A stretch of DNA of 40,436 nt, taken from positions 1 to 40,436 of IMG/VR virus record IMGVR_UViG_3300045988_092566, one strand, 5' to 3'. Both the position numbers and the translations under genes were made by a program. Shown here piece after piece: positions 3,227 through 40,436 of this stretch. The notes under the pieces are model-generated. The model saw nothing but the letters and a program-made list of their open reading frames with translations, did no database searches and was not told the DNA's origin. Positions within the stretch are counted from its first letter, which is position 1; each line of letters begins with the position of its first letter. The stretch comes from a virus.

Positions 3227-4875
3227 TCCAATTCCTTTCCGGTCAATAGTGTCCAGCTGTCTATGGTTTTCCGCCAGATTTCGCGTGGCCTGTCCACGAG
3301 GAAGAACATCGAATTGGCGTCCGCGGCGGCCGTACCGTACGCGCCGGTGTAATATCGCAGGCCATTGTGGAGTTTTTCGGTGCGCACCCACAGGTCGCCG
3401 ACCACTCCGTCCGGCTGGTCGGCCTGAAGGTATACGTGCTTGGTGACAGTGGTGCCACCGGCTTTGATGGTGACTTCCGCTGGATGGTAGCAGTCCGATT
3501 TGAGCGCGGCCAATAGCGTGGTCGTATTGCTCACCCACGTCAGGGTCTGGCCGGCCAACGTGGCAACCGTGGTGTCCCGTGACGCCATGGACGCGTCCAC
3601 GTCCGACGTGTGCCCGTCCAGGTACGCGGCCACCGGTTTGAGCCTGATGGTCGGCTGGTCGGGAATCTCATACGGGCCGGCCACGACGAAGTCCACGGGT
3701 TCCATCCACAGGTCCGTCCGCATCGTGGCCGCGGGGAACCATTTGCGTAATTGCTCAAGGGTCTTTGCGGCTTCGCTGGCGGCGGCCGAAGCGGTATCGG
3801 CATGTTCCGCGCTGACCGTCTCAGACGTTTTCGCCGCGGTCTCGCTGGCCTTGGCCTTATCGGCCGATGTGGCCGCATCATGCGCTTTGCCGGTGGCCGT
3901 GCTGGCGGAGGTATTGGCTGATTGGGCGGCCGTCTCCGCGTTGGCCGCGCTGGCATTGGCCGCGGCCTCGCTGTCTTTTGCCTTCGCCGCCGAATCGGAT
4001 GCCGCCGTCGCCGACCGTGCCGCCGCGCTCTCGGATGCCGATGCCGCCGACTTGGATTGTCCGGCGCTCTCGGCCGACTTCGCGGAGGCGGATTCGCTCG
4101 CCTGCGCCGCAGTGGCGGATCGCCCCGCCGCCTGGGCCTTGTCGGCGGCCGTCCGCATGGCGTCTTCGGCGGCCTGCCTTGCCGCCTCGGCCCTGGCCTG
4201 CGCGTCGATCGCGGCGTCGGCCTTGCCGCCCGCTGTCTTGGCCGCGGTGTCGGCGGTAGCCGCGTCACGCCCGACCTGTGCGGCTGTCTCCGTGATCCGC
4301 GCCGCAATGGTCTTGGCCTCGCCGATCAGCCCCTGCGCCGTGGTCTCGGCTTCGTGCGCGAGACTGGCGCTGGACGCCGCCGCCGTCTGCGATGCGAGTG
4401 CCCTCACGGCCGCATCCGCCGCCTTCGCACTCTCCTGCCCCGCCACTCCTTCGCTGGCCTTCGCCGCCTGCGCGGACCGTTCGTCGCGGGCCACCTTGTC
4501 GTCGATCGAATCGATCTGATCCAGAGCGGACTGGGCGGCTCGGGTCACGGTCTCCCACGCGGCCACCGTCTCCGAGCTCGGATCGAGCGTGGCGGGATCC
4601 ACATCCGCCAGCCCTGAGTACTCCGCCGACTCCTTGTCGGGCACCTCGACGTATCGCACGATTCCGCCCGCCACCAGCTCGCTCACCCTCCACACCCACT
4701 GGGTGGTCGAGGGCATCACCTCCGCGGTGGCCTCGCCTTTGTCGAGCTTGACGGTCTGCGCGACCGGCAGGCGGATCGCGTCACGCACCGTCACGCGTCT
4801 TGTGGGCACGAGGCTCACGCTGCCGTCCAGACCGCACCCCTCGGCGTCGGTCAGGTGGAAATGCACCAATGTCAT
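3223..4875 (-). CDS. Tail fibre or minor tail protein with a long Ala-rich coiled-coil stalk (550 aa)
   Basis: It has a globular N-terminus, about 270 aa of A/S/T/E/K-rich repeats, and a globular C-terminus. Other frames in this region are shadow ORFs. Confidence 0.7.
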   Translation of the reverse strand: MTLVHFHLTDAEGCGLDGSVSLVPTRRVTVRDAIRLPVAQTVKLDKGEATAEVMPSTTQWVWRVSELVAGGIVRYVEVPDKESAEYSGLADVDPATLDPSSETVAAWETVTRAAQSALDQIDSIDDKVARDERSAQAAKASEGVAGQESAKAADAAVRALASQTAAASSASLAHEAETTAQGLIGEAKTIAARITETAAQVGRDAATADTAAKTAGGKADAAIDAQARAEAARQAAEDAMRTAADKAQAAGRSATAAQASESASAKSAESAGQSKSAASASESAAARSATAASDSAAKAKDSEAAANASAANAETAAQSANTSASTATGKAHDAATSADKAKASETAAKTSETVSAEHADTASAAASEAAKTLEQLRKWFPAATMRTDLWMEPVDFVVAGPYEIPDQPTIRLKPVAAYLDGHTSDVDASMASRDTTVATLAGQTLTWVSNTTTLLAALKSDCYHPAEVTIKAGGTTVTKHVYLQADQPDGVVGDLWVRTEKLHNGLRYYTGAYGTAAADANSMFFLVDRPREIWRKTIDSWTLLTGKELE

Positions 4876-5099
4876 GAGTACTCCTTCCTTAATTCCGTGC
4901 TTGACAAGAGATCAAGCGGCGACATCGGCTCCCCCATGGGTCAAGCCTCTTCGACTGCCGTCCCTGAACCATCCGGTTGGAATCACGCGCACGGTGGCGT
5001 TGGACAGGTCGACGATGCCGCCTGCACTGGGTTTGCCGAAGTCGAAATTGATCTTGTCATCCGTGTCCTCCTTTAGAACAGTGGTTTGAAAAACGGGTG

Positions 5100-5152
5100 G
5101 AAAACCCACAGGTCGGAACGTTTCGCCGGAACGATGCCGACTGTGGGTTTTC
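5100..5152. promoter_or_regulatory. Long inverted repeat (about 16-bp stem) immediately upstream of the recombinase RBS
   Basis: GAAAACCCACAGGTCGG ... CCGACTGTGGGTTTTC, with T-rich flanks on both strands. Confidence 0.5.
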
Positions 5153-5173
5153 ACAAGGTGAAAGGTAAGAAGA

Positions 5174-6046
5174 ATGCTGTTGGGAACGTTCGTGGATGAT
5201 GTCTGGTGGCCGTCCTGCGCGAGGCTCCGTGAATGTACAAGAGTGGGCTACGAATCGGCCTACCGTTGTCATATCCAGTCGAAGTGGGGTGGTGTCGATA
5301 TGGAGTCGATCACTGCATCAGATATCGAGGAATGGCTAGGCTCGTTCAAGCGGGCTGGCGCCGCACGGAAGGCTTGGGCCGTTCTGCGGGCGATACTGAG
5401 GCTCGCCTACCGGCGTGGCGTCACGGACAATGACGTGACCAGAAGGGAGATCCGTTTGCCGCATCTCCGCCGTTACGAGCCGCGGGTATTGGACGCACGC
5501 CAGGTGCGCCGCCTGCTGAAAGGCTTCTATGGCCACGCGTTGGAGGCGTGGCTGCTGGTCTCCGTATGCGCCGGATTGAGACGATGCGAGTCCGTCGGCA
5601 TCGAATGGTCCGATCTGGACTTGAAGCGAGGCACGGTCACCGTCAAACGTTCCGTGCAATGGGTCGCCGGCCATGAGACGGTCACCGACCCGAAAACCGA
5701 CCAGAGCAGACGAACCGTGGCACTTCCCCGATTCGCAGTCAAAAGGCTCGCGCAGTTGAAACACGGCAGGAGCGGACGGCTGGTAGGAGACCTGAACGCT
5801 AACCAGGTCGCCTCACACTACATGGCATGGTGCCGGCGGATGAAACTCCCCTGCGTGCCGCCACGCAACCTGCGCCACACCTTCGGAACACTGGCGATTG
5901 CCGCCGGCGCCGACATCTCAGTGGTCGCACGCCAGCTCGGACACAGCGACATCAAGACCACGGCCCGCTACTATCTGCGCCCGGATCTGTCGGTGCTGAA
6001 GAGTCTGCAGCGGGCATGGGAGCGGCTCATTATCGGGGTCGCATAG
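5174..6046 (+). CDS. Tyrosine recombinase, shufflon-type invertase (Rci/Rin-like), 290 aa
   Basis: Catalytic-type motifs are present: AGLRRCE, LRHTFGT, GHSDIKTTARYY. It is the only plus-strand gene in the late region. Its TAG stop is the first 3 nt of the inverted recombination site. Confidence 0.85.
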   Translation: MLLGTFVDDVWWPSCARLRECTRVGYESAYRCHIQSKWGGVDMESITASDIEEWLGSFKRAGAARKAWAVLRAILRLAYRRGVTDNDVTRREIRLPHLRRYEPRVLDARQVRRLLKGFYGHALEAWLLVSVCAGLRRCESVGIEWSDLDLKRGTVTVKRSVQWVAGHETVTDPKTDQSRRTVALPRFAVKRLAQLKHGRSGRLVGDLNANQVASHYMAWCRRMKLPCVPPRNLRHTFGTLAIAAGADISVVARQLGHSDIKTTARYYLRPDLSVLKSLQRAWERLIIGVA

Positions 6047-6059
6047 CTTTCCGTAGCCC
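6044..6059 (-). repeat. Recombination site S6, the only copy in inverted orientation
   Basis: TAGCTTTCCGTAGCCC is the reverse complement of GGGCTACGGAAAGCTA, with one mismatch to the core of the other six sites. Confidence 0.85.
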
Positions 6060-6406
6060 TCACTGCTACCTTTAAGTTTCAGGACACAGGATCGTTTGTT
6101 GGCGCCCTATATGGTGGATCCAACACGATTACCGTCAAGGGCAACATGCTGTATGTCGATTTGAGCTCTTTCAAATCAACCGTCGAAATCTCGAACTACC
6201 GTGTCTGGTTATATCAGTCAGGGATACGTCCATCGGCCACAATTGGACTGGGATGTGTTGGATCAAGTCTTGCGGATCCGCGCTACAACAAGCAAGCGAA
6301 TTGGAATCCGGATGGCAGTATTACGTTACTTGGCGGAATTGGCAGGGAGAACATTCTGATGCAGCGTTTTTCCATGCCGATTCCTAGTGGAGTGACGTTC
6401 TCCTAG
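6060..6406 (+). other. Silent RBP C-terminal cassette A (plus orientation, about 116 aa)
   Basis: The open frame continues directly from the TCC GTA GCC junction of S6 (LSVALTATFKF...GVTFS*). It has no start codon or RBS of its own at the junction. Confidence 0.8.
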
Positions 6407-6728
6407 ACAAGTGGCACCGTGATACAGCCTTCGACCCATCCCCCGTTTGCGCTTACTGTCATCTTTCCCGAGGAACGCAAGGCGATGGTGTGCTGCGCCA
6501 CCTGCACTTCGACGCCATGCAATCCGATGCTCGAATTGGATACTGCGGCGCAATGCACCTCGAAAGCCGCCTCCAAACCGGCTGGGAGTGTGAAAAGCGG
6601 GGATGTCTCCCATTCTTTCGCCGCATTCCAGTCGCTACCGACTCGGATTGCGTGGAATGCGACGATCAACAGCTTGCCTACCAGCGCGGTACGGTAATTC
6701 ACGTTCCAATTCTGGTTCGATCTGGTGA
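6403..6728 (-). other. Silent RBP C-terminal cassette C5 (about 109 aa)
   Basis: The frame runs from the S5 junction as SVTLTRSNQNWNVNYRTALVGK...VPLV*. Its stop shares the CTAG at 6403-6406 with cassette A. Confidence 0.8.
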
Positions 6729-6744
6729 GGGTTACGGAAAGCTA
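6729..6744 (+). repeat. Recombination site S5
   Basis: GGGTTACGGAAAGCTA. Confidence 0.85.
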
Positions 6745-6745
6745 T

Positions 6746-7041
6746 TCAGGCGAGAATGTAGGTCATCGTCCCGTAGAACGTGCCGCTGTTCTGCACCGCG
6801 CCACAATTGGCATAACGGAAATTGCCATTCGTTTCCAGAATGAAATCACGCTGGCTGCCACCATCACGCCCCGACCACGTACCATGCGTGACGACCGCAG
6901 GCCTCCAACCCTTCGGAATTGTACCGAACTGTCCACTGCCCCACGAGTCAGTGCTCGCGCTTTTCCAGTTGATGCTAATCTGCGCGATCTTGCCAGACTT
7001 CACGCCGGTCACGGTGCCATACTGCGATTTAATCAAAGTCT
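6746..7041 (-). other. Silent RBP C-terminal cassette C4 (about 99 aa)
   Basis: In frame from the S4 junction: SVTQTLIKSQYGTVTG...TMTYILA*. Confidence 0.8.
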
Positions 7042-7057
7042 GGGTTACGGAATGCTA
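7042..7057 (+). repeat. Recombination site S4
   Basis: GGGTTACGGAATGCTA. The CTA provides the TAG stop of cassette C3. Confidence 0.85.
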
Positions 7058-7353
7058 TTTCACCGACCAGCAGCCGCAGATGCGGAAATAGTATCCACGG
7101 TTCATGCTGCCGTTGATCGTGACCTTGCCGTCAGAGTCAAAGTACAAGGCTCCATGCTGCCCGTTCACGCCTTCCAGCAGTATCGTGCCTTCATCCTCCG
7201 GCAGGAAACCGGCGACCATCGTCTCATTCACGATCTGGCCGTTGGTATTGATGTCGGAGGAGAAGGACGTGTTGCCAAAAGCGAACGCCATCCTGCCGAC
7301 TTTGGCGAGACGCACCGTCATGCCGTAAGGCCCATGCCAGATCTGCCGTTCAA
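7055..7353 (-). other. Silent RBP C-terminal cassette C3 (about 100 aa)
   Basis: In frame from the S3 junction: SVTLERQIWHGPYGMTVRLAK...CGCWSVK*. Confidence 0.8.
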
Positions 7354-7369
7354 GGGTTACGGAAAGCTA
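7354..7369 (+). repeat. Recombination site S3
   Basis: GGGTTACGGAAAGCTA. Confidence 0.85.
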
Positions 7370-7373
7370 GAAA

Positions 7374-7657
7374 TCATGGGATTGGGAAACAAAGCGTGCC
7401 GACGCAATCCTGATTGCTGCCAACGTTTCCCATGTTCGCCACTCGGATAGTTCCATCAGCTCTGGCCGTGAGGCTTCGCGCCGTTTGCCCATTTGATACA
7501 AGGCAGACAGTCGACAAGTCAACGATGGGACGATACCAGGACGCGAGCTTTACCGGACATTCAACAGCATCCCAACTGCCCGAACCGATTTTCCCACTGA
7601 ACTTGATCAAAATCATCCTGCCGTTACGCATGATGATCCAATTGGAATCCTGGTACA
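7374..7657 (-). other. Silent RBP C-terminal cassette C2 (about 95 aa), paralogous to C1
   Basis: In frame from the S2 junction: SVTLYQDSNWIIMRNGRMILIKFSGKIGSGSWD...CFPIP*. Confidence 0.8.
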
Positions 7658-7673
7658 GGGTTACGGAAAACTA
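7658..7673 (+). repeat. Recombination site S2
   Basis: GGGTTACGGAAAACTA. Confidence 0.85.
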
Positions 7674-7676
7674 TCC

Positions 7677-7960
7677 TCATGGGATCGGATAGCAGAGCGA
7701 GCCGACGCAACCCTGATTGCTGCCAGCGGCTCCCATGTTCGCGCATCGGATGGTTCCGTTCGGGTTGACGACAAGCATTCTCGCCGTCTGCCCGTTCGAC
7801 ACGCACACCATCGCATTGACCTCGATAGGCGGGCGCAGTTCGGCGGGCAACACGTATTCGCATTGCACTGAATCCCAACTGCCACTACCGATATTGCCGG
7901 AATACTTGACGAGCATCATCATGCCGGTGCGGACGACCGCGAAGCCCTTCGCGTTATACA
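7677..7960 (-). other. Silent RBP C-terminal cassette C1 (about 95 aa)
   Basis: In frame from the S1 junction: SVTLYNAKGFAVVRTGMMMLVKYSGNIGSGSWD...CYPIP*. Confidence 0.8.
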
Positions 7961-7976
7961 GGGTTACGGAAAACTA
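7961..7976 (+). repeat. Recombination site S1
   Basis: GGGTTACGGAAAACTA. The CTA is the TAG stop of the currently expressed RBP. Confidence 0.85.
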
Positions 7977-8801
7977 CTGCTTCGCGTCGAAGACGTGGAC
8001 AGTCACGGCGATGCGATAGCTCAGCGATGTGCCGCTGGCGTTCCATGCGACAATCTGAAATCCTTTTGCCGAATGACTGTTCGTAATCATCGAGATGTTG
8101 TTGAACGACGGCACTTTGTTTTTAGCGTCATTCATCAACTGTAATTCGACGGAGTATGAATCCCAGTTTGCCGCTTCGATCGGCAGCTTGATGTCTATTG
8201 ACGTGTTCGTGTTCGGCTTGAAGATCATGGACGCGACGCGGTAGGCGTCATAGCCTCTAGGCCGCGCGACCACGACCCATTCACCCGACTGGGTTACGGA
8301 ATCCCACAGCTTCGACATGGGAGGCAGCTGTTTGATGAGCATGACCGGCGTGCCGGGCGTGATCCCGCTGATCGGGATGCGGGCGATCGGGATCCACACC
8401 GTGCCGGAGGCCGAGTGGATGCTGCCCGACGGGACGGTCGGATCGGCGGCCGTTCCGGTGTTTGGCGTGCCTTTGAGTACGGCGATGGCAGCGGTCTCGA
8501 TGTTCTGACCGTTCCGTGTGTATTTGAGGCAGACGAGGTCGTTGCGGTTCCGGCCGCTCACGCCGCTTTCGATGGTCGCGGTCTCGGCCTCGGTGACGCG
8601 CGCGTATCGTCCTTCGACCACGAGGTTGAGGACGGGGATCAGCGCGTGATTCGCATCCTGCATGGTCACCGTAGGGAAAGTGCCGTCGCTGCCCTGCAGC
8701 AGGTAGCTTCCGTTGCCGATGATTCCGGCTTGCATGGCGCCCATGTCGCCGCTGGTGATGTGCGGTGTGCCGCCCTTGCCTGTGATGAGCGTGGTGGTCA
8801 T
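7974..8801 (-). CDS. Tail receptor-binding protein: constant N-terminal 168 aa fused at site S0 to the currently active C-terminal cassette C0
   Basis: The 275-aa ORF lies directly after the Tal gene and a small Zn-ribbon gene. The internal site at 8291-8306 encodes WDSVTQ. The C-terminal 105 aa occupies the same position as the silent cassettes. Confidence 0.8.
   Translation of the reverse strand: MTTTLITGKGGTPHITSGDMGAMQAGIIGNGSYLLQGSDGTFPTVTMQDANHALIPVLNLVVEGRYARVTEAETATIESGVSGRNRNDLVCLKYTRNGQNIETAAIAVLKGTPNTGTAADPTVPSGSIHSASGTVWIPIARIPISGITPGTPVMLIKQLPPMSKLWDSVTQSGEWVVVARPRGYDAYRVASMIFKPNTNTSIDIKLPIEAANWDSYSVELQLMNDAKNKVPSFNNISMITNSHSAKGFQIVAWNASGTSLSYRIAVTVHVFDAKQ
8291..8306 (+). repeat. 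Recombination site S0, inside the expressed RBP gene
   Basis: GGGTTACGGAATCCCA shares the 11-bp core GGGTTACGGAA with S1-S5. Confidence 0.85.
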
Positions 8802-24548: not shown

Positions 24549-24715
24549 ATGGACAGGCGGTTTGAGCATCACCGCATCACGTAAGCGCGGGATTGGCTTG
24601 CCTGCCACTGTTGGTGTATGCCCACTCTGACGTGAGTGGGCGGAGCGTGTCCGATATGCCGTTCGGACAGGACGGTGTTACGTAGCCCAAGGAGTTAGGA
24701 GAATCCATGGCGGAT

Positions 24716-33343: not shown

Positions 33344-33435
33344 TGCCGGGACGCGGATTCGAACCGCGCATCCATCCGCCGACGTGACCTCAACACGCCG
33401 ATCCATGGCGCCCGCATCCTGTCGCGGGTCCCGGC
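33344..33435 (-). tRNA. 92-nt tRNA-like gene, non-canonical, with competing Leu(GAG)-like and Ser(GGA)-like anticodon arms
   Basis: The acceptor stem is GCCGGGA/TCCCGGC (7 bp). The T-arm is CGCGG-TTCGAAT-CCGCG. The D-arm is CGC-GACAGGAT-GCG. The stem-loop GGCGTG-TTGAGGT-CACGTC has U33 and G37. Confidence 0.45.
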
Positions 33436-39017: not shown

Positions 39018-40301
39018 GTGGGAAGAAGCGCCATGAAAGTGACCATTGATGATCTGTGGCTCAAGAATGACGATGATGGCAATCCGCCGAGTCGCGCGGC
39101 CAAACGCTCTTTGGCGAACTCACGCGATCCGATGAAGGCCAATGTGCCTGAGAAGTGGCGTAAAAGCCGTTATGGGGTCGGGATGCGCTGGCGTTGTCAT
39201 TGGACCATCGTCAAGGACGGTAGACGTGTGCAGAGGGTGAAGCAGTTCGCCAGGCTCGCCGAAGCGCAGGAATATGCCGCGGCCATGGAGGACGACATCA
39301 GGCGGGGACGCTACCGCGATCCTCGTCAGGAGCTTCGTGTCCTGGATGATGTGGCCGGCGAATGGCTCGCGTCGAAGGTTGATTTGAAACCCGGCACCGC
39401 GGGCCGGTATGCGAGGGAGCTGCGCCTGTACATCCTGCCCAAATGGGGTGGCATGACGTTGCGTGAGCTGCGCCCTGACATGCTGCAGGAGTGGGTCGGC
39501 CAGCTCATGGACGGTGGTTATCCGGCCGCGTTGCCGGACGGGCGTGATTCGAAGCCGCTGAGTGCGAGAAGCATCCGCAATATCATGAAAGTCGTCCTCA
39601 AGGGCATCTTTGACTACGCCGTCTCGAACGGGTGGATCGGTGAGAATCCTGTGGACAGGGTCACCGTGCCGAAGATCGTCTCCGACGACGACATGGTGTT
39701 CCTCTCGGTCCGCGAGGTCGAGTTGCTCGCGGACGAGGCGGAGAAGATCGGGAAGCCGGTGGACGGTCTGCTGGTCAGATGGCAGGCCTATACGGGATGC
39801 CGCATAGGCGAATCGCTTGCCCTTAAGGTCGGTGACGTGGATGTGGACAGGCGGCGCGCCAGGATAGGCCGCACATGGACTGACGACGGGCACGGCGGCA
39901 GCATGCTCGGCACCCCGAAGAACGGCAAGGCCCGCAACATCGCGATACCACGGTTCCTTATGCCGCAGATCAAGGCGCAGATGGATGGCATGGGTGATGA
40001 CGACTGGCTGTTCCGTGCCACCCGTGGCGGGAACGTCTGGACGAACACGTGGCGGACAAGGATATGGAACAAGGCCGTCAAAGCGGCCGGCATGGAGGAC
40101 GCGGGCGTGACCATACACAGTCTGCGCCACACATACGCGAGCTTCGCGATCGCCCAGGGCGCGGACGTGAAGACCCTGCAGATGCAGCTCGGCCACTCCT
40201 CTCCCAGCATCACATTGAACACCTACACGGCGCTCTGGCCGGAACGATTGGACGACGTGGCCGACGCGATCGGAGCCCTCCGCGAGCGCGAACTCGTGTG
40301 A
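39018..40301 (+). CDS. int: Tyrosine integrase (427 aa from the GTG at 39018; 422 aa from the ATG at 39033)
   Basis: It has an N-terminal SAM-like/arm-binding region and the catalytic motifs TGCRIGE, HSLRHTYAS and GHSSPSITLNTY. It is adjacent to attR and the tRNA. Confidence 0.9.
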   Translation: MGRSAMKVTIDDLWLKNDDDGNPPSRAAKRSLANSRDPMKANVPEKWRKSRYGVGMRWRCHWTIVKDGRRVQRVKQFARLAEAQEYAAAMEDDIRRGRYRDPRQELRVLDDVAGEWLASKVDLKPGTAGRYARELRLYILPKWGGMTLRELRPDMLQEWVGQLMDGGYPAALPDGRDSKPLSARSIRNIMKVVLKGIFDYAVSNGWIGENPVDRVTVPKIVSDDDMVFLSVREVELLADEAEKIGKPVDGLLVRWQAYTGCRIGESLALKVGDVDVDRRRARIGRTWTDDGHGGSMLGTPKNGKARNIAIPRFLMPQIKAQMDGMGDDDWLFRATRGGNVWTNTWRTRIWNKAVKAAGMEDAGVTIHSLRHTYASFAIAQGADVKTLQMQLGHSSPSITLNTYTALWPERLDDVADAIGALRERELV

Positions 40302-40360: not shown

Positions 40361-40399
40361 AAAAAATAAGCCCTTGAAAACCTAATGTTTCCAAGGGCT
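40361..40399 (-). terminator. Intrinsic terminator of the host tRNA gene (duplicated at 1-39)
   Basis: On the minus strand AGCCCTTG-N15-CAAGGGCT is followed by TATTTTTT. Confidence 0.6.
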
Positions 40400-40401
40400 C
40401 C

Positions 40402-40436
40402 GGTCGGGCTGACAGGATTTGAACCTGCGACATTCT
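40402..40436 (-). tRNA. 3' part of the host tRNA gene used as attB; the gene continues beyond the window and its identity is unresolved
   Basis: On the minus strand ...GCAGG-TTCAAAT-CCTGT-CAGCCCG-A-CC. The anticodon is not in the window. Confidence 0.7.

Follow-up and report, generated by a model that had tools for sequence, protein, structure and literature searches.

The window analyzed here is IMG/VR virus record IMGVR_UViG_3300045988_092566 over its whole length of 40,436 nucleotides (nt). It carries, at positions 5,174 to 8,801, a recombination locus in which a tyrosine recombinase gene, rin, is convergent to a gene encoding a putative receptor-binding protein (RBP) of the phage tail tip (Table 1). 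The RBP gene consists of a constant part, Rc, currently joined to cassette c1, and is followed by the silent cassettes c2 to c6 on the same strand and by cassette A on the opposite strand next to rin. Seven short sites, named rix (S0 to S6), separate these units. We regard the locus as very probably an active shufflon of the Rin type, which works by inversions at rix that span the two-headed pivot formed by c6 and A.

Table 1. Features of the shufflon locus in window coordinates (aa, amino acids; ORF, open reading frame)
Feature	Position	Strand	Core	Description
Hairpin plus T-run	5097..5155	-		Between rin and the next tail gene; minimum free energy -28.2 kcal/mol, z = -4.0
rin	5174..6046	+		290-aa tyrosine recombinase (invertase); PF00589 (E = 1e-15) and SAM-like N-terminal domain
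rix S6	6044..6060	+	6049-6059	rin-proximal, sole site in its orientation; TAGCT/TTCCGTA/GCCCT
Cassette A	6050..6406	+		118 aa, starts SVA; one pivot head; expressed in L158
Cassette c6	6403..6738	-		111 aa; other pivot head
rix S5	6728..6744	-	6729-6739	
Cassette c5	6746..7051	-		101 aa
rix S4	7041..7057	-	7042-7052	
Cassette c4	7055..7363	-		102 aa
rix S3	7353..7369	-	7354-7364	
Cassette c3	7374..7667	-		97 aa, 55% identical to c2
rix S2	7657..7673	-	7658-7668	
Cassette c2	7677..7970	-		97 aa; expressed in L167, L170, L171, L172
rix S1	7960..7976	-	7961-7971	Includes the stop codon (TAG) of the gene now expressed
Cassette c1	7974..8300	-		108 aa; now fused in frame to Rc (ORF 7974-8801)
rix S0	8290..8306	-	8291-8301	Expression site within the RBP gene; TGGGA/TTCCGTA/ACCCA
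Rc	8301..8801	-		Constant N-terminal 167 aa of the putative receptor-binding (tail-tip) protein

A search of the 40.4-kb window for GGG[T/C]TACGGAA returns exactly seven copies: six on the plus strand, starting at the first core positions of S5 to S0, and a single minus-strand copy at S6, which is the only GGGCTAC variant. The site search thereby confirms the initial annotation in that six sites share one orientation and S6 alone, fused to the recombinase stop codon, is inverted; the coordinates, the orientations and the distance of approximately 2.25 kb between S0 and S6 given there were all correct. By chance, 0.73 matches with at most one mismatch are expected, and none of 100 shuffles gave eight. 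One more near-match, at 24678-24688 (GGGCTACGTAA), has its single mismatch inside the putative overlap described below and, its count being within chance, was dropped as noise.

The repeat grows to approximately 17 nt (family D3; inverted pairs I1, I3, I4, and I6 with 6043-6063). Read on the minus strand, the sites are TTCCGTAACCC, which in the frame (T)TCC GTA ACC C gives S-V-T; the S0 core lies inside the 275-aa minus-strand ORF and there encodes W-D-S-V-T-Q. With one representative per flank cluster, the consensus is T(-5) R G N W, TTCCGTA, A C C C W. Cassettes c1 to c5 close with TAG, two bases, and the next core, and rin ends alike, with its stop codon TAG (6044-6046) contained in the left arm of S6; TAG-N-W is therefore counted as part of the site. 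The arms of S0 are near-palindromic (TGGGA/TGGGT), and the silent and rin sites have a weaker left arm, TAGYW, with three of five positions matching. The asymmetry of rix proposed in the initial annotation is thus real, yet less stark than a contrast of one conserved and one variable arm, as the weaker arm is still semi-conserved (T-R-G-N-W).

All seven cassettes are promoterless and are open from S-V-T (S-V-A in the case of A) to a stop codon, and they share only 17-33% identity with one another, apart from the c2/c3 pair. The convergent A and c6 overlap at their stop codons in the palindrome CTAG (6403-6406), forming a two-headed pivot without any spacer. Among public proteins, Rc is found fused to A, c1, c2, c3, c5, and c6; the Rc-A fusions are 285 aa long with an LWDSVA junction (P0188, P0209), and the Rc-c6 fusions are 278 aa. 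The N-terminal 168 residues are nearly invariant among homologues with differing C termini. On the minus strand, the gene order of the tail module is tape-measure protein (TMP), Dit, a minor tail protein, a 77-aa protein, and the RBP, a location that identifies the locus as a tail-tip module. A receptor-binding role is suggested by this position, by one public source that names homologue P0163 “receptor binding protein,” and by the published homologous system. The RBP itself had no Pfam or NCBIfam match, and in PHROGs it matched only families of unknown function.

Rin comprises two XerD-like domains, lacks an arm-binding domain, and extends 24 aa beyond the catalytic Tyr; a tail of 22-25 aa at this point is shared by 99 of 100 homologues. 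Its alignment with XerD and XerA covers the full length, its best PDB and NCBIfam relatives are XerD/XerA/XerC, and its R..K..R..H..Y active-site positions align with those of XerD. The NCBIfam models for tyrosine-type DNA invertases match weakly (E = 2e-5 and 6e-3, far below cut-off).

The window ends are identical over 76 nt (1-76 and 40361-40436), and a contig of the same phage (L163, 9380-9713) continues straight over the end-to-start junction, which identifies the window as a complete, circularly assembled phage genome of approximately 40,360 bp and not a chromosomal slice. It also encodes a canonical integrase (427 aa, 39018-40301), a portal protein, ParB, and a GH25 lysin. The virus is a temperate gut Bifidobacterium phage. 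Among deposited phages, Bifidobacterium phage PMBT6 is closest to it (83% nt identity), and species assigned to Rin homologues with 85-90% identity include B. longum, B. adolescentis, and B. pseudocatenulatum. The phage is very common in the gut; public assemblies contain exactly this Rin protein in 1,324 indexed blocks. A switch that diversifies its receptor-binding tip bears on phage-host dynamics in the infant and adult gut and is also relevant to the difficulty of propagating such phages on single hosts.

Other assemblies of this same phage show the switch in further states. Independent assemblies (L160-L165, L167, L169-L171) contain Rc, rin, and the seven cassettes, 100% nt-identical throughout, in eight or more arrangements. 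Written from Rc toward rin, with a tilde for reversed cassettes, these are c1 c2 c3 c4 c5 (c6/A) in the window and in L162; c1 c4 c2 c3 c5 (A/c6) in L160; c1 (c6/A) ~c2 ~c3 ~c4 ~c5 in both L161 and L169; c1 c4 (A/c6) ~c5 ~c3 ~c2 in L164; c2 (c6/A) ~c3 ~c1 ~c4 ~c5 in L170; c2 c5 (A/c6) ~c1 ... in L171; c1 c5 c4 c3 c2 (A... in L163; and c2 c3 c5 c1 c4 (A... in L167. The arrangements lie 1-6 inversions apart, and their minimum spanning tree (MST) has 12-15 events, namely, 12 inversions, or 15 when two rin-deleted orders are included. In L158, with an Rc 98% identical, A is expressed and is followed by reversed c6 and c5, the kind of product expected from S0 x S6 inversion. That only this single flip ever occurs, the finding which the initial annotation named as contradicting its model, does not agree with the data: the arrangements need the internal sites.

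The same organization is observed in relatives (80 IMG/VR loci and two phage records, with Rin at ≥92% identity). All 61 complete related loci show a run of “-” sites, one long pivot gap, and a run of “+” sites, and ten further loci with an identical Rin protein (L147-L157 series) follow this orientation rule too. Sites were detected at up to one mismatch; a few degenerate sites were missed, none of them breaking the rule. One six-cassette set occurs in at least nine permutations, so that the permuted cassette orders predicted for related prophages turn out to be abundant. Contig ends add to this picture: among 29 contigs ending inside the array, 26 end after rix (20 of these ≤60 nt from it) and three at the rin stop codon, while three contigs of the window phage end at S0. 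Close relatives in a one-genome-per-species contig set are few, with contigs stopping at the rin-proximal rix. Such breaks suggest alternative junctions in the sequenced population, of which they are the usual signature.

The orientation rule can be accounted for by a simple scheme. Each site would consist of a left half (the end of Rc, a cassette, or rin) and a right half (a cassette start), and every event would join one left half to one right half. Five segments are then single-headed, running from cassette start through cassette and stop codon to left arm, and c6/A is the lone two-headed segment, acting as the pivot. On the Rc side of the pivot single-headed segments must lie forward, and on its rin side they must be reversed, a placement from which it follows that pre-pivot sites share the orientation of S0 and post-pivot sites are inverted. 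With one two-headed segment and all others single-headed, every inversion spans the pivot. This one-pivot rule with its monotone site runs is new here. The outcome would be a phage population whose tail tips carry one of seven unrelated C-terminal domains of approximately 100 aa, and the switched domain presumably alters host range.

An exhaustive breadth-first search of all arrangements gives 1,440 interconvertible states in six orientation classes of 240. The window belongs to the 6:1 class, with the pivot beside rin, which makes up one-sixth of the states; if states are visited by a random walk, its share is approximately 11%. For an array in the window state, S0 x S6 is the one event that alters expression; it would yield Rc-A with the SVA junction, and the other five cassettes need two inversions. 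In the mirror “fan” state, any cassette is one inversion away, and after S0 x S6, or any silent Sk x S6, the remaining cassettes would likewise be a single step off. The two-step reach of the five silent cassettes claimed in the initial annotation therefore holds for the window state and fails as a lasting constraint. Nor must S0 x S6 come first, since c2 is expressed when S0 x S6 follows S1 x S6. Nor are nested inversions “forced” by the 6:1 pattern: it is one of six equal classes, and other assemblies of the same phage are in 2:5 and 3:4 states, where most cassettes are one step away. We also considered 6:1 as an unusual state and rejected it, as equal classes would put 17.7 of the 59 related loci in the all-but-one-direct state and 17 are observed there (19 of 59 are in the fan state). 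The 6:1 pattern is a transient state of the switch and not the design of the locus.

Natural polymorphism further indicates where strand exchange takes place. TTCCGTA is intact in 343 of 346 sites, and polymorphisms to its left and right each remain linked to the half in which they lie. A start of cassette A always carries G at core position 8 (GGGCTAC; 32 of 32 cases), and no other cassette does. The left partners beside this G number nine, among them rin, Rc, and the ends of several cassettes. On the left, the arm is GTGGGA in nearly all Rc-type contexts (with one divergent context, GTGGA) and almost always TAGCT for rin. This co-segregation would confine strand exchange to the 7-bp TTCCGTA, and we infer that crossover occurs within this non-palindromic stretch. 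Seven base pairs is the usual overlap length of tyrosine recombinases and also the core length of sfx, the site of the R64 shufflon.

The same data settle the status of the mismatch at S6. The SVA junction anticipated in the initial annotation does exist (P0188, P0209, L158), yet the variant is not tied to the rin-fused position: among relatives, 61 of 67 rin-proximal sites have the ordinary form, TTCCGTAACCC. We therefore rejected S6 as a special, weaker rin-proximal site, since the variant travels with cassette A; the GGGCTAC mismatch is a property of that cassette's arm. The mapping of the crossover to TTCCGTA by natural polymorphism and the reassignment of the mismatch to cassette A are new here.

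Two further variants are observed at this level. A c1 allele with the right arm TTCC instead of ACCC (site TTCCGTATTCC, SVF junction) occurs with four different left partners (L083:4486, L095:3457, L092:2622, L137:1827, L090:4713), and proteins with an SVF fusion, such as P0122, are known; recombination may thus not depend strictly on the ACCC arm. In L117, two sites at 3484 and 4781, namely, S0 and an inverted internal site, both carry a T-to-C change at core position 2 (TCCCGTAACCC). An overlap variant shared by two partners is what would be expected if the overlap sequence is copied during exchange.

By site and architecture, the locus belongs to the Rin shufflon kind described in prophages Bb423phi1, Bl157phi1, and Bl30698phi1 of B. 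breve and B. longum by Mavrich et al. 2018 (Sci Rep 8:12772; PMC6109161). That study reports an armless tyrosine invertase gene, rin, an Rc of 168 aa, Rv cassettes of 95-100 aa, and an 11-bp rix, TTCCCTAACCC; it observes inversions between prophages and in virion DNA, including inversion of the whole Rv segment, describes “priming” inversions through the site after the expressed gene, and raises how deletion between direct sites is avoided. The Rin system has also been found in Eggerthella lenta prophages (PMC8778435). The likeness to the window is close: an armless XerD-like recombinase whose gene closes the far side of the array and converges on the RBP gene, an asymmetric rix of 11 bp before each cassette and inside the RBP gene, an Rc of 167 aa here, mutually dissimilar cassettes (97-118 aa here), a location after TMP and Dit, and inversions at rix between genomes, here seen as arrangements of an identical phage. 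Differences are the seven cassettes and seven sites here compared to five Rv cassettes in Bb423phi1, a window rix TTCCGTAACCC that matches the published TTCCCTAACCC at 10 of 11 positions and is thus one base apart, and a phage lineage that is not the same, its nearest record being PMBT6. A Collinsella relative (L004) carries exactly TTCCCTAACCC. The nested inversions and the deletion problem raised in the initial annotation are accordingly real but not new, as both are found in Mavrich et al. 2018; in these respects, the locus re-derives what that study described and asked, with a larger array and a one-base variant of rix.

The initial annotation had also likened the enzyme to Rci, and we find this to be an analogy only. 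Compared with the R64 shufflon (NC_005014), the window shares a tyrosine recombinase encoded at the array end, multiple inversions that choose the C-terminal segment of an adhesin, and sites with a 7-bp spacer and unequal arms. In BLASTP, however, Rin and Rci are only 22% identical over 183 aa of the catalytic domain (E = 5e-4), and Rci, of 384 aa, continues for 113 aa past the Tyr. The inversion-only behavior of Rci is credited to sfx asymmetry plus its extra C-terminal domain (PMC11852207), a domain absent from Rin. Membership of Rin in the Rci family was rejected on these grounds, together with its short, conserved tail. The arrays differ as well: sfx orientations alternate (+ - + - + +), with several independently invertible two-headed segments, whereas Rin arrays have one pivot and monotone runs. 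Likewise, sfx has a 12-bp conserved arm and a free arm, in contrast to the short ACCC(W) arm and the semi-conserved T-R-G-N-W of rix, which is unrelated in sequence to GTGCCAATCCGGT.

Min (p15B), Gin (Mu), and Cin (P1) also use phage inversion to swap the C-terminal part of a tail fiber or RBP and so change host range, and Min is also multisegmented. Unlike Rin, they are serine invertases with directionality control by an enhancer and Fis, and such a switch was ruled out for the window because only PF00589 tyrosine-recombinase domains were found. One expression site, many silent 3' cassettes, and short sites are also features of the tyrosine invertase systems vsa/HvsR of Mycoplasma pulmonis and Tsr of Bacteroides, which are cellular surface-protein loci and not phage loci.

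With 15 direct and 6 inverted site pairs in the window state, and no state with more than 12 of 21 pairs inverted, concern over deletion is legitimate. Nevertheless, intact arrays of the same phage retain all seven cassettes across the MST-linked arrangements. A Steiner tree is at least half of the MST, so that 6-8 events are the minimum, and the chance of no loss with an orientation-blind enzyme is at most 0.57^6 to 0.57^8, or approximately 0.01-0.035. Judged by these sequences, a strong preference of Rin for inversion is probable, and this indirect evidence for an inversion bias without an Rci-type domain appears to be new. Together with the pivot rule and the crossover mapping, it makes the published “directionality conundrum” directly testable.

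The claim that the site orientations “demand” inversion-only recombination goes too far, being strictly neither shown nor required. Where rin and Rc are ≥99% identical (25 loci), the arrays form a nested series with as few as 2 cassettes (pivot only) and as many as 7, and among 306 such locus pairs the same cassette set is seen in only 16 and the same arrangement in only 1. This indicates that any inversion restriction is not absolute over evolutionary time.

A separate observation concerns exchange between lineages. At 32 junctions (L084-L145, e.g., L084, L109, and L138), identity to the window jumps exactly at rix: it is 73-83% on the rin or Rc side and 97-100% within the cassette. Nearly unchanged copies of A, c6, c5, and c3 are shared between lineages whose rin and Rc have diverged by 17-27%, and in L072 Rc is only 39% identical. 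These jumps show that cassettes move between lineages as rix-delimited modules, and rare intermolecular rix x rix events would fit this movement. The jumps suggest intermolecular exchange by Rin and do not prove it, since shared cassettes could also recombine by homology and then be shuffled, with a similar result.

Several points weigh against our interpretation. The arrangements are those of consensus assemblies and may in principle include chimeric paths through mixed populations. The cleavage positions are deduced from co-segregation. The bias is argued only from retention of seven cassettes in a few identical phages, and selection for intact arrays could mimic it. For the RBP, a fold resembling the RBPs of lactococcal phages 1358 and TP901-1 would be expected of a Rin shufflon; an AlphaFold2 model from a 40-sequence alignment reached a pLDDT of only 31.5, and phmmer and profile searches gave no meaningful PDB match.

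Three other explanations have to be considered. It is quite improbable that the 6:1 order of the window is an assembler path through a mixed population and not the dominant molecule. The metagenome-style circular assembly with its terminal overlap would fit this, as would the many assemblies of the phage that break exactly at rix and so indicate that mixed junctions are common. The window order is, however, also that of L162, other all-direct orders (L160, L163, L167) were independently assembled, and cassettes of approximately 300 bp mean that paired reads usually link neighboring junctions; even if true, this explanation leaves the nature of the system unchanged. That the array is a fossil, or a two-state S0 x S6 switch with passenger pseudo-cassettes, we consider extremely improbable. 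It finds support in the window state, where S0 x S6 is the sole expression-changing event, and in nothing beyond the window; the arrangements of the identical phage require internal sites as partners, c2 is expressed in L167 and L170-L172, Rc is fused to six of the seven cassettes, and all cassettes keep open frames.

Unlikely, too, is an orientation-blind, Cre-like Rin that deletes as readily as it inverts, with selection and cassette re-acquisition preserving large arrays. Such an enzyme would agree with the absence of the C-terminal domain credited with the inversion-only behavior of Rci, with the nested range of 2-7 cassettes between near-identical rin and Rc, and with the rix-exact identity jumps, which intermolecular rix x rix events would produce. 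It is difficult to reconcile with the retention of all seven cassettes over 12-15 inversions, given the low chance of no loss calculated above, and with arrays of at least five sites in about half of the 61 complete loci. Returning to an enzyme with an inversion bias, we tentatively propose as one possibility that Rin is a minimal 290-aa recombinase which, lacking an Rci-type C-terminal domain, strongly prefers inversion by means of the strong and weak arms of rix around a 7-bp overlap, with rare intermolecular events making cassettes portable between phage lineages whose Rc genes are unrelated. If true, it would represent a second, mechanistically independent inversion-only solution and a compact tool for in vivo sequence shuffling.

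Further observations concern rin and its surroundings. At the usual His-II position, Rin has an Arg (R230, window 5861-5863; PPRNLRH compared to SPHVLRH in XerD), and the motif RNLRH[T/S] is kept in 92 of 94 scorable homologues. A promoter scan found no sigma-70-like promoter for rin, using a sigma-70 model that is uninformative for Actinobacteria. The hairpin listed in Table 1 has a 16-bp stem followed by GUUUUUC and also appears in the terminator-scan list; it is likely a terminator, which would act on RBP-operon read-through across the array, antisense to rin. In addition, the phage genome carries a tRNA-Leu gene (anticodon GAG; 33345-33427, minus strand).

Three independent assemblies of the window phage contain differing deletions, with ends not at rix, in which rin is removed or truncated. 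The joins are 6208 to 2737 in L163, 5507 to 4471 in L164, and nt ~52 of cassette A to 5362 in L167, with overlaps of 4, 6, and 10 nt in this set, and in two of the three c6 and part of A are also lost. Without an intact rin the array is frozen, twice in an all-direct state, and this recurrent loss of the invertase may be biologically meaningful in yielding locked variants. Another unusual locus, L064:891-5200 (IMG/VR), lacks Rc; its cassette array has a rin gene on each side, the two genes converging and being 100% and 73% nt-identical to that of the window. Either two co-occurring phages were joined in a chimeric assembly, or the array has an unusual double-rin layout.

Among the relatives, c2 is a pivot head (c2/r14) in L077, L141, and L142 and single-headed in the window, so that cassettes can switch segment type. 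The rin-proximal site of L118 (4790-4800) is one base short (TTCCGTA-CCC), such that a fused cassette would be out of frame; the missing base reflects damage to the site or else an error in sequencing. Finally, L128:5756-5787 contains two rix cores 21 nt apart, with a spacer, ACCCAGCTGTGGGA, nearly equal to the last 14 nt of Rc, and looks like a duplicated S0 or a recombination product at a pseudo-site inside Rc.

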